From Chitinivibrionales bacterium (GTDB lineage Bacteria; Fibrobacterota; Chitinivibrionia; Chitinivibrionales; WJMI01): a stretch of 15,135 nucleotides of DNA. The notes below the pieces were generated by a model that searched no databases, was not told where the DNA came from, and saw only the letters and a program-made list of their open reading frames with translations. Positions 9,748-11,673 of this stretch are shown here, piece after piece. The stretch spans positions 1 to 15,135 of the forward strand of contig WJJU01000318.1 of NCBI GenBank assembly GCA_014729595.1, read 5' to 3'. The translations under genes were made by a program, and so were the position numbers. How positions within the stretch are numbered: the stretch's first letter is position 1; every line of letters starts with the position of its first letter.

Positions 9748-11673
9748 TCACTCAAAGCCGTAGTAATCCGGATGCTTGTCGATGATCATCCGGGCGATAA
9801 TCTGCGGGACGTATTCGCGGGTTTCTTGCGCAAGGAGTGTGCTGGTGCGGTAGAGATACCAGAAATCGTGATCATGAAACGGGTCCTCGATTTGTGCGAG
9901 CGCCCGGCGGATCTTACCTTCGCCGGCATTGTAGGCGGCAATCGCCAGCATCACGTCACCGCCGCCGCCGAATTGACTTATAAGAAAATGAAGGTATTTC
10001 GCGGCGGCATGGGTGGATTTCCTCCAGTCAAGTCGCTCGTCCATGATCGAACTCACCTCGAGTCCGAATCGTCTGCCGGTCGCCGGCATGAACTGCCACA
10101 TACCCAGCGCGCCGGCCACGCTCTCGACATCCTCCTTGAGCGCACTTTCCTGCATGGCCACATAAGCCAGGACCCCCGGAAGGCGATAGCGTCTGAATGT
10201 GCGATGAATCTCGGGGAAATATGTAGCTTTACGCTGCATGATCCTTTCTGTCGAGGATTTCATCCGCCCGCTGAATAGCTCGATATAGTGCTTCACCCGG
10301 CTCAGCATCTGCGGGGGTACGTGATAGTTGGTCTCTTTAAACTCCCGCATTACCTCATCGATGAAATATTCTACGGTATCGGTATAGAACCTGCGATGAT
10401 CGGCTTGATCCAGCAGGCCCTTAACCGAATCGAGTTCGGATTTGCGTTCTTGTAGTTGGGCGTACAATCGATTCAATTCATCCCGCGCACCCTCCTTACC
10501 GCGAACCTTCTCCATTTGACGTTCATATCCGTCGAGTTCCCGCTCGATTTCGAGGCCCTTGGATAAGATGCTTCGATAACGGAAATAGCCGACACCGAAA
10601 TAGATCGCGGCCGCCAATGCCACGCCGACGGCGGTTCCGAAGATGATGAAATGAGTCCGGCGCATCGTCCGATAAGCCTTTACAAAAGAATCCATCGTTC
10701 TTCGCTGCGCCTTGCCGATCTTTTCATCCGCCAGCACTCTTCCCCGCTTCGCATTATCGCGAACCAAGATCTTGATGTCGCCGGTATTGAGCATCTGTTC
10801 GCGGAGTCGCGATTGTATTTCCACCGTTAAGGGAGGCCCGTCTTTGGTCGGCTCGGAGGAGTTTGTCGGCGCGGCCGGATATCCCAGCGGGACATCCGAG
10901 AGACTCAGGGATCCGGTTAAGGCGACACCGTCACCCGACGGGACCGCCTCGTCGCGCCCCTTGGATGCATCGAGGTCTCCCGAACGGGTCCGAGAAGTAC
11001 CGTTATCACCACCGCTCGAAGGTGCTCGGGAAGTAGCGTTCCGCTCGTCACTCGATTGCGGCCGCGAGGAGTCGTCGTCTGGAGACAGTGCAAGATCATC
11101 GTTATTTTCGTTGTGAATCGCTCTTCGTGAGGTGTCCTCGATGTCGGTCTCGCCGTGTAGGGGCGGCTCATAACCGACGGCTTCCGTGTTGGACGACGGC
11201 TTTTTCGGCGGTTCGGCATCCGAAGGCGGTATCGGCCGTACTGCTTGTGTTCCCTCATCGGCCGCCAGAGCGAGTTCATCACCAAGCTCACCCCACACCG
11301 GTGCGCGTCGCCCGTTGCTCTCGTGGCTCCCGGCTCCCGTCACCGACGATGCGGCGGGAAGCTCATCGGCCGGTACAACTCTGAATTGCGGACCGCTGTG
11401 CGCCAACGATACGATATCTTTTGAAGAGATGTGTTGGTGCTCAACTTCTTCACCGTTAACGTAGGTACCGTTCGTACTCCGGCTGTCATGCACCGAAACA
11501 CCATCCCGCCCTACACGGATTATGGCATGAAGTCCCGACACCTGCTTGGCGCCTTTTCCCAGACATACGGGGTTCGATTGATGACGTCCAATTGTCGTCT
11601 CGCCCTCTTGCAACTCAAATCGTTGCCCCGCGCATTCTCCACTGATAATTTCAAGTATATAGGGTCCCGCCAT
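9748..11673 (-). CDS. FHA-domain / transmembrane / lytic transglycosylase (SLT family) fusion protein. The start is proposed at the ATG at 11673; the track ORF extends to 11736.
   Basis: The N-terminal FHA domain reads 'TTIGRHQSNPVCLG...VSGLHAIIRVGRDGVSVHDSRSTNGTYVNGEEV...DIVSL'. A disordered linker of roughly 200 aa, rich in Ser/Asp/Pro/Gly, follows, then one TM helix 'HFIIFGTAVGVALAAAIYFGVGYF' (about 10572-10644) and a coiled-coil segment. The C-terminal SLT domain has 'AMQESALK...SVAGALGMWQFMPATG...AKYL...MLAIAAYNAGEG' (catalytic ES, GLMQ-like and AYNAG motifs). Confidence 0.85.
   Translation of the reverse strand: MAGPYILEIISGECAGQRFELQEGETTIGRHQSNPVCLGKGAKQVSGLHAIIRVGRDGVSVHDSRSTNGTYVNGEEVEHQHISSKDIVSLAHSGPQFRVVPADELPAASSVTGAGSHESNGRRAPVWGELGDELALAADEGTQAVRPIPPSDAEPPKKPSSNTEAVGYEPPLHGETDIEDTSRRAIHNENNDDLALSPDDDSSRPQSSDERNATSRAPSSGGDNGTSRTRSGDLDASKGRDEAVPSGDGVALTGSLSLSDVPLGYPAAPTNSSEPTKDGPPLTVEIQSRLREQMLNTGDIKILVRDNAKRGRVLADEKIGKAQRRTMDSFVKAYRTMRRTHFIIFGTAVGVALAAAIYFGVGYFRYRSILSKGLEIERELDGYERQMEKVRGKEGARDELNRLYAQLQERKSELDSVKGLLDQADHRRFYTDTVEYFIDEVMREFKETNYHVPPQMLSRVKHYIELFSGRMKSSTERIMQRKATYFPEIHRTFRRYRLPGVLAYVAMQESALKEDVESVAGALGMWQFMPATGRRFGLEVSSIMDERLDWRKSTHAAAKYLHFLISQFGGGGDVMLAIAAYNAGEGKIRRALAQIEDPFHDHDFWYLYRTSTLLAQETREYVPQIIARMIIDKHPDYYGFE

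Follow-up and report, generated by a model that had tools for sequence, protein, structure and literature searches.

A polypeptide joining an FHA domain, a transmembrane helix and an MltD-like lytic transglycosylase, encoded beside tssM in a Chitinivibrionales contig and probably a phosphorylation-controlled accessory of the type VI secretion system

How the membrane complex of a type VI secretion system, or T6SS, passes through the peptidoglycan is only partly understood, and T6SS clusters have been considered to be without a lytic transglycosylase of their own, using instead either the borrowed housekeeping enzyme MltE or the TagX peptidase. The locus described here raises the question of whether some of these systems bring along an enzyme of their own, and one under phosphorylation control. 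The sequence under study is the whole of a 15,135-nt contig of a Chitinivibrionales (Fibrobacterota) metagenome-assembled genome (MAG), referred to below as the window. Next to the T6SS gene tssM, it carries a gene (9748..11673, minus strand; 641 aa plus stop) whose product has an FHA domain, a single transmembrane (TM) helix and an SLT lytic transglycosylase domain, an arrangement abbreviated here as FHA-TM-SLT. We consider it reasonably probable that the gene encodes a bitopic inner-membrane protein, with a cytoplasmic phosphothreonine (pThr) reader and a periplasmic MltD-type enzyme, which acts as a T6SS accessory in Chitinivibrionia. The FHA-TM-SLT protein is probably an undescribed, built-in and phosphorylation-controlled wall opener of this secretion system.

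The open reading frame is uninterrupted over 9748..11736 on the minus strand, which amounts to 662 aa counted from the first ATG; this ATG (11736) is the start used in the NCBI annotation, while a second one at 11673 gives the 641-aa form. The N-termini of 14 homologues start 4-6 residues ahead of the first FHA strand, and the 21 additional residues (11674-11736) have no counterpart in 13 of these 14 homologues, which makes the start at 11673 the likelier one. No well-placed Shine-Dalgarno sequence was found at either start. Residue numbers used below are those of the 641-aa form, for which the codon positions were verified. An NCBI protein from a Chitinivibrionales MAG, annotated only as "transglycosylase SLT domain-containing protein", shows 100% identity to the product. 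An earlier note on this DNA had read the FHA and SLT parts as belonging to one polypeptide, and this is indeed the case, since both Pfam domains lie on a single open reading frame and not on separate genes. An assembly artefact, frameshift or chimera was ruled out by the colinear FHA-SLT architecture of 79 out of 79 relatives from independent assemblies.

The FHA domain occupies residues 1-101 (11371..11673, minus strand), as supported by Pfam, AlphaFold2, Foldseek and conservation. The Pfam match (PF00498) scores 49.3 bits against a cutoff of 20.7 (E 7e-13), and all of the pThr-binding residues are present (G29-R30, S46-x-x-H49 and S66-T67-N68). The AlphaFold2 model, which was built from a 15-sequence alignment and has a mean predicted local distance difference test score (pLDDT) of 74.7, shows a confident beta sandwich over residues 1-101 (pLDDT ~90), and in a Foldseek comparison with the PDB this fold matches GarA, OdhI and FhaA in their FHA domains, which bind pThr (TM 0.85-0.9). 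Judged by its fold and residues, the domain is of the canonical pThr-binding type, and binding of a phosphorylated threonine is predicted. The same N-terminal part also matches the Pfam family Yop-YscD_cpl (E 3.5e-11; 43.6 bits, the cutoff being 33.2) and the NCBIfam model for GltG (E 2.9e-11).

The FHA domain is followed by a disordered linker (residues 108-276; 10846..11352, minus strand), with pLDDT values below 50 and a composition rich in S, D, P, G and A, whose length and sequence vary among the relatives. A disordered linker had been proposed earlier with a length of about 200 aa; the disorder is borne out, and the length measured is ~170-180 aa. Cytoplasmic juxtamembrane helices then cover residues ~282-340 (10654..10830, minus strand) and correspond to the AlphaFold2 helix 282-314 and the start of the helix 321-390. 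They open with T283 (codon 10825-10827, minus strand), which stands in a T-x-E-I motif. As the classical preference of FHA domains is pT-x-x-I/L, T283 could be a kinase target or a ligand of the FHA domain. A threonine located ~60 residues before the TM helix, in a T-x-[ED]-hydrophobic context, is found in 10 of 15 close relatives; it is missing both from the closest one (P0028) and from the wider family, and T283 is thus to be taken only as a lead.

The single TM helix (residues 341-364; 10582..10653, minus strand) reaches a Kyte-Doolittle peak of 2.17 and has seven K/R within the 20 residues preceding it. Considering this charge distribution and the lack of an N-terminal signal peptide in the protein, an N-in/C-out orientation is predicted, with the FHA domain in the cytoplasm and the SLT domain in the periplasm, and hydropathy and flanking charge therefore bear out the topology first put forward from reading the sequence. 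On the periplasmic side, residues 365-419 (10417..10581, minus strand) are modelled by AlphaFold2 as a helical hairpin or coiled-coil stalk, made up of the end of the long helix 321-390 that contains the TM segment and of a second helix (397-419), with a pLDDT of 84-93.

The remainder of the protein (residues 423-641; 9751..10407, minus strand) is a lytic transglycosylase domain of the MltD-like type (family 1D), assigned by Pfam, phmmer and Foldseek. The Pfam SLT family (PF01464) matches with 86.9 bits (E 9e-25), above its cutoff of 21.3, and the AlphaFold2 model is confident and all-helical over residues 423-633. Its best C-terminal match in the PDB, according to Foldseek, is MltD from P. 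aeruginosa (8rhe, 8rhf and 8rhi; 32-34% identity over ~215 columns), and phmmer retrieves 8rhe at 4e-23. The best NCBIfam match is likewise MltD (NF008050), with 91.6 bits against a cutoff of 508 and over the catalytic part only. E509-S510, in the sequence AMQESAL (E509 codon 10147-10149), aligns with the catalytic "ES" of MltD (8rhe) and Slt (5ohu, 6fbt), and the other active-site elements of family 1 are present as well, namely G524-M-W-Q527, A579-A-Y-N-A-G584 and Y621. From the signature ES/GLMQ/AYNAG given in the earlier note, the first and third motifs stand, while the second one reads G-M-W-Q; the catalytic Glu, whose absence would have spoken against the whole idea, is there as E509 and is at least 90% conserved in the family. 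On these sequence features the domain is a bona fide SLT/family-1D domain with intact catalytic motifs, and it is predicted to be active.

The architecture is not confined to the window. An exhaustive HMMER search of 1.84 billion cluster representatives returned 300 proteins at E <1e-30, from which a family set of 79 was defined, consisting of the window protein and the 78 listed matches that align in at least two stretches. FHA-TM-SLT proteins are accordingly found in at least 79 clusters (at 50% identity). Pfam matches the FHA and the SLT domain in every one of the 79, and in 77 the two domains are separated by a single strong hydrophobic helix, mostly ~180 residues upstream of GxWQ. Over the 79 sequences, conservation is complete or at least 90% for the pThr residues of the FHA domain, for the catalytic E-S and for the remaining active-site motifs, which shows selection on both the reader and the catalytic functions. 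Those members that carry a name are from MAGs of Fibrobacter sp., Chitinivibrionales, Chitinispirillaceae, Fibrobacteria, Candidatus Schekmanbacteria and Eiseniibacteriota. Other searches recovered less of the family: a word-index search with the window protein gave only one full-length relative (P0002), with the 79-sequence profile the same type of search gave mainly FHA-only proteins and missed the family, and a genome-contig scan with the window protein gave three MltD-like alphaproteobacterial loci and no family member. A locus search with 15 close sequences yielded 80 loci, 11 of which have FHA together with SLT, the others being ordinary MltD-like genes. No curated NCBIfam model covering the full FHA-TM-SLT length was found.

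Genomic contexts were obtained for 19 members including the window, of which 10 are linked to T6SS genes and 9 have none within ~10 kb. In the clade of the window protein, all five members with a known context are linked to tssM (36-45% protein identity), so that the co-occurrence of the two genes expected from the window alone is also seen in its relatives. In the window itself, tssM is divergent from the FHA-SLT gene. The locus of the closest relative (L009/P0028, 45% identity) has clpV and tssM together on one strand, divergent from a series in which the FHA-SLT gene is followed by genes for a Hanks-type Ser/Thr kinase of the membrane and a PEGA protein and then by tssK and tssL. In L005/P0029, tssM is divergent and the FHA-SLT gene is followed by a convergent kinase and then by VgrG-like, DUF2169 and PAAR-like genes, and the contig of P0031 likewise has a divergent tssM, the FHA-SLT gene and a convergent kinase. 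L011/P0046 has the order tssL, tssM, one intervening gene, FHA-SLT and kinase. The T6SS genes whose absence would have counted against the proposal are thus present, as tssM adjacent to the gene in the window and as clpV, tssK, tssL, tssJ, tssC and PAAR/VgrG-like genes among the relatives.

More distant members are found in T6SS loci with other gene orders. A member with two FHA domains (2xFHA; L001/P0002) lies 8 nt downstream of tssC, and L012/P0100 lies opposite a tssK-tssL-tssM operon. L095/P0126 (9140-21914) and L097/P0174 (3086-16397) both show the order FHA, 2xFHA-TM-SLT, FHA, PP2C phosphatase, kinase, tssJ, tssK, tssL and tssM, and L028 (7466-20305) shows FHA, 2xFHA-TM-SLT, FHA, kinase, tssK, tssL and tssM, as detected with local hidden Markov models (HMMs) only, with PP2C and tssJ not screened. 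The second FHA protein of the L095/L097 block is ~470 aa long with a weak VWA-like match, and the kinase of this block has a PEGA domain. On either side of the gene, L028 and L095 have FHA-only proteins; these were considered as canonical TagH and rejected, as they score below the TIGR03354 cutoff.

A kinase also recurs beside the gene. A membrane Hanks kinase is its immediate neighbour in four of the five window-clade members with known context, and 9 of the 19 contexts have such a kinase either next to the gene or within its operon. The kinases found beside FHA-SLT genes are bitopic membrane proteins, like PpkA. The check for a PpkA-like kinase nearby that the earlier note proposed finds none in the window contig, and finds kinases among the relatives, both in the clade and in the distant operons which combine PP2C and kinase; the idea of gating by a kinase is supported by these same neighbours.

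In the nine contexts that lack T6SS genes, the surroundings are varied. L006/P0034 has a CHASE2-kinase upstream and a radical SAM gene downstream, L007/P0035 a radical SAM gene and housekeeping genes, L010/P0049 a divergent kinase, gyrase and NDK, L014/P0109 an ABC transporter, and L015 a kinase upstream, while L016, L020, L022 and L078 have housekeeping or envelope genes, such as those for MurJ, FtsH, TilS and glycosyltransferases. For L015, L016, L020, L022 and L078 this classification was made with our own TssM/TssK/TssL/TssC HMMs and a pooled Pfam scan (25 commonest families), so that the evidence is weaker than for L006, L007, L010 and L014. In the sister clade of the window clade, the start of a ~330-aa radical SAM gene overlaps or abuts the FHA-TM-SLT stop (L006 6093-7100, L007 5811-6794, L008 2284-3267). 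The 2xFHA members P0002 (L001 2842-3525) and P0109 (L014 5436-7800) are followed by ABC-transporter ATPase/permease genes, which may be a third recurring partner of the family.

The association with T6SS is thus clade-specific and at the same time recurrent, with differing gene orders, which makes inherited synteny alone hard to invoke. Since 9 of the 19 contexts are without T6SS genes, the module is not intrinsically T6SS-specific, and the family is better described as a kinase-coupled lytic transglycosylase of a more general kind, of which T6SS loci have repeatedly made use. In a neighbour-joining tree, the window protein groups with P0028, P0029, P0030, P0031, P0036 and P0046, and the 2xFHA clades found in T6SS operons branch far from this group. 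The role of a factor dedicated to the T6SS, as the earlier note had it, agrees with the synteny of the window clade and does not extend to the whole family; for the clade, we infer such a dedication from synteny only.

The neighbouring gene itself is tssM (icmF). Its first 1019 codons occupy 12079..15135 on the plus strand, in a frame that runs off the right contig end, and the product matches IcmF-related_N (3.5e-43), IcmF-related (9e-25) and IcmF_helical (4e-08), all above cutoffs. The model for TssM of T6SS (TIGR03348) scores 312 bits, versus 55.6 for type IVB IcmF, with a gene cut by the contig end and a score below the equivalog cutoff of 388. The window TssM has a Walker A motif at residue 64 and only one TM helix (390-408), so that it does not show the canonical three-TM topology, the N-terminal TM hairpin being missing. 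Within the clade, TssM proteins (window, L005 6482-9766, L009 1449-4742 and L011 2975-6244) have a single strong TM helix at ~372-390 and a Walker A motif at ~60: there is one TM helix in L005 and L009, and one strong TM helix plus a marginal peak near residue 138 in L011. Three TM helices are present in the TssM of L097, a distant locus. The loci of the window clade showed no tssJ, and in them the IcmF_C domain is absent or weak.

The divergent region between the FHA-SLT gene and tssM (11674..12078) measures 405 bp, and the divergent layout is kept in L005, L009 and the P0031 contig. A spacer of 340 bp had been given before; the divergence is as described, and the distance is 405 bp when counted from 11673 and 342 only when counted from the ATG at 11736. 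Sigma-70-like sites in 9400-12200 occur at the shuffled expectation, with none within the spacer, and manual inspection of the sequence near 11724 for a sigma-54 -24/-12 element gave a spacing that does not agree with one. A motif common to the divergent spacers of the window, L005 and L009 was sought and only chance k-mers were found.

The components of the protein each have well-known counterparts. With MltD it shares a common catalytic module, including the Glu-Ser pair, GxWQ, AYNxG and the C-terminal "ET.EYVP" helix. MltD is however an outer-membrane lipoprotein with C-terminal LysM repeats, whereas the FHA-TM-SLT protein is predicted to be anchored in the inner membrane by its internal TM helix and has a cytoplasmic FHA domain in addition; it has no signal peptide, no LysM was matched in it by Pfam, and a lipobox is likewise absent. 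The enzyme closest to it in its proposed job, local peptidoglycan cleavage for the assembly of TssJLM, is MltE of enteroaggregative E. coli, also of the SLT superfamily, which is recruited and activated by the periplasmic domain of TssM and needed for membrane-complex assembly (PMC10433429, PMC13584744). MltE, a housekeeping lipoprotein of the outer membrane, has its gene outside the T6SS cluster and is activated by TssM in the periplasm, while the FHA-SLT gene adjoins tssM and its product would be held in the inner membrane with a phospho-reader of its own in the cytoplasm. Lytic transglycosylases encoded in the cluster "are an exception in T6SS clusters" (PMC10433429), and a 2026 catalogue of T6SS accessory genes names no cluster-encoded wall hydrolase other than TagX and gives TagH as a soluble protein with an FHA domain (PMC13584744). 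TagX, an L,D-endopeptidase of Acinetobacter, is cluster-encoded, membrane-anchored and needed for passage of the T6SS through the wall (PMC13584744). Being cluster-encoded, membrane-anchored and peptidoglycan-cleaving is what the two proteins have in common; TagX, a peptidase, cuts peptide stems and is without FHA or known phospho-control, and FHA-SLT is predicted to cut glycan strands.

On the signalling side, T6SS assembly in Pseudomonas, Serratia and Agrobacterium is set off by the membrane kinase PpkA/TagE acting through TagH/Fha, an FHA protein, and Agrobacterium Fha binds phosphorylated TssL (PMC13584744, PMC10433429). The likeness with this TagH/Fha1-PpkA (TagE)-PppA (TagG) set lies in the pThr-type FHA domain, encoded among the relatives in T6SS loci with a membrane Hanks kinase and, in some clades, a PP2C. 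TagH differs in being soluble and cytoplasmic with a characteristic C-terminal region, where FHA-SLT has a TM helix and a periplasmic enzyme, and the TagH model (TIGR03354) indeed reaches only 21 bits on the FHA-SLT protein, over the FHA part only, against a cutoff of 120.25. SctD (YscD/PrgH/EscD) of type III secretion systems (T3SS) and GltG of Myxococcus gliding are also laid out with a cytoplasmic FHA fold at the N-terminus, then one TM helix, then a periplasmic part. In those proteins, however, the periplasmic parts are ring-building or non-enzymatic, whereas FHA-SLT has a lytic transglycosylase together with canonical pThr residues, and the SctD/YscD model TIGR02500 gave no match to the window protein.

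Enzymes that are encoded with the machine they serve, such as EtgA/IpgF, VirB1 and FlgJ/SltF, are likewise lytic transglycosylases; some are small proteins secreted to the periplasm, others are fused to rod-cap proteins, and none of them is known to have a cytoplasmic signalling domain. The machines in question are the T3SS (EtgA/IpgF), the type IV secretion system (VirB1) and the flagellum (FlgJ/SltF) (PMC10433429). The FHA-TM-SLT protein is therefore not a categorically new system, and it combines the specialised lytic transglycosylase of a trans-envelope machine with a phospho-Thr/FHA switch. No description of a fusion of FHA with a lytic transglycosylase or SLT domain in connection with T6SS was found in the literature searched (full text, subscription journals excepted), and no such fusion is listed in the 2026 catalogue (PMC13584744). 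Because of this coverage, the architecture is provisionally regarded as undescribed. The first reading of the sequence had likewise not recognised it as one already described, which is upheld for the literature; in public databases, the protein is already present under a generic annotation.

Sequence, predicted structure and comparative genomics support the interpretation of the earlier note as far as such evidence reaches, and how the protein would work, on the most economical reading, can be outlined from these comparisons. A membrane Hanks-type Ser/Thr kinase would phosphorylate a threonine, the candidates being the kinase itself, the N-terminus of TssL (as in Agrobacterium) and the linker of the FHA-SLT protein. 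The FHA domain would then bind this pThr, so that the protein is concentrated or activated at the place where TssL and TssM assemble, and the tethered periplasmic enzyme would cleave glycan strands locally, letting the periplasmic channel of TssM cross the sacculus and, possibly, the T6SS fire. The protein may also help hold the complex on the peptidoglycan. The TssL proteins of the related loci are short (215-276 aa) with a C-terminal TM helix only and no peptidoglycan-binding extension, for which reason the enzyme domain may supply a peptidoglycan contact as well.

The T6SS reading has to be weighed against the possibility that the gene encodes a general, Ser/Thr-kinase-regulated housekeeping lytic transglycosylase, acting in cell-wall growth, division or turnover and merely located beside tssM. 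In its logic this would resemble the way in which PknB-FhaA/FipA controls wall synthesis in actinobacteria, and several observations point in its direction and weigh against a T6SS role. With T6SS genes absent within ~10 kb in 9 of 19 contexts, about half of those known for the family are not T6SS-linked; the non-T6SS loci L006, L010 and L015 keep the kinase, and some loci are near envelope or housekeeping genes such as those for MurJ, FtsH, TilS, NAD synthase or gyrase. The sister clade of the window clade, of the radical-SAM/kinase type, is without T6SS genes, and the window-clade synteny may in part reflect shared ancestry. The window contig itself contains no Ser/Thr kinase or phosphatase gene in its 15 kb, an Aas-like acyl-ligase/acyltransferase gene sitting where the relatives have the kinase, and tssM is the only T6SS gene visible, since the contig ends inside it. 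The neighbour-joining tree carries no support values, and the carriers found are uncultured MAGs or metagenome contigs only, with no isolate genome among them. On the other side, the gene is kept next to tssM in five out of five window-clade contexts despite protein identities of 36-45%, and a further three clades, all distant, also lie within T6SS loci whose gene orders differ, which speaks for a functional coupling that has occurred repeatedly. A purely housekeeping function is for this clade considered unlikely.

The same proteins could also be looked upon as structural subunits, with an FHA-TM scaffold like that of SctD/YscD or GltG and an SLT domain serving as a peptidoglycan anchor that replaces TagL or the extension of an "evolved" TssL, cleavage being dispensable. 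This would be in line with the Yop-YscD_cpl and GltG matches of the N-terminus and with the short TssL of the related loci, devoid of a peptidoglycan-binding domain, a peptidoglycan-binding accessory being usual in loci with an "ancestral" TssL (PMC13584744). Family-wide conservation of the catalytic E-S and of the active-site motifs is however unexpected for a domain that only binds, the intact pThr residues fit a signalling FHA domain better than a purely structural one, and the periplasmic part has just a helical stalk and the enzyme, with no ring-building domains; such an anchoring role is consequently regarded as quite improbable. An antibacterial, peptidoglycan-degrading effector delivered by the T6SS would account for a peptidoglycan-cleaving domain encoded beside T6SS genes, and lytic transglycosylase effectors do exist, for instance Tse4 of Acinetobacter (PMC10433429). 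An internal TM helix with N-in/C-out orientation and a cytoplasmic FHA domain do not suit a delivered protein, there is no PAAR, VgrG, MIX or Rhs module and no small immunity-like gene adjacent in the window, and the conserved partners are tssM and the kinase, not vgrG/PAAR. The effector reading was rejected on the topology and the absence of delivery modules, and is deemed extremely improbable.

The remainder of the window contains genes of other kinds. The Aas-like gene mentioned above (6856-9528, minus strand) is directly downstream of FHA-SLT and encodes an 890-aa fusion of an AMP-binding domain, a phosphopantetheine carrier and a PlsC-type acyltransferase; it is followed by an alpha/beta hydrolase gene (5451-6455, minus strand). 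A family-1 encapsulin operon is located at 1404-2661 on the plus strand, in which a gene for a 131-aa rubrerythrin/ferritin-like protein, whose final residues ...DIPSIGNLRGER resemble an encapsulin cargo-loading peptide, is directly followed by the gene of a Linocin_M18 encapsulin shell protein (1849-2661, plus strand; Pfam 2e-69). The pair is flanked by genes for a 4Fe-4S ferredoxin (771-1160, plus strand) and a desulfoferrodoxin (superoxide reductase; 2758-3153, plus strand), and the whole set looks like an oxidative-stress island of an anaerobe. Three putative open reading frames have no Pfam match: 4353-4907 (minus strand; 184 aa, with a basic N-terminus and an acidic C-terminus), 3520-3927 (minus strand; 135 aa, hydrophobic) and 5014-5370 (plus strand; 118 aa). 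No tRNA or Rfam families were detected across the window.

If the T6SS reading of the FHA-TM-SLT protein is true, a cluster-encoded lytic transglycosylase fused to an FHA reader links the assembly signal, that is, when and where the machine is built, directly to the opening of the wall. It offers a model, open to testing, of how an enzyme that is potentially lethal is controlled in space, and for the T6SS specialist it would be a sensible yet unanticipated solution, through which wall opening and its control become directly testable. It would also mean that T6SS loci outside Proteobacteria hold accessory solutions that are missing from current catalogues. More tentatively, and as a possibility that we regard as doubtful in its full extent, FHA-TM-SLT proteins might form an unrecognised class of "inside-out", phospho-gated lytic transglycosylases, in which a Ser/Thr-kinase signal from the cytoplasm, read in cis by the FHA domain, directly switches or positions a periplasmic enzyme that cleaves peptidoglycan; such a class would serve as the T6SS wall opener in several phyla of the Fibrobacterota-Chlorobiota-Bacteroidota (FCB) group and candidate phyla, merging the roles of TagH/Fha, MltE and possibly TagL, and would act in housekeeping remodelling in other clades. 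The finding also points to a broader family of kinase-coupled wall hydrolases.

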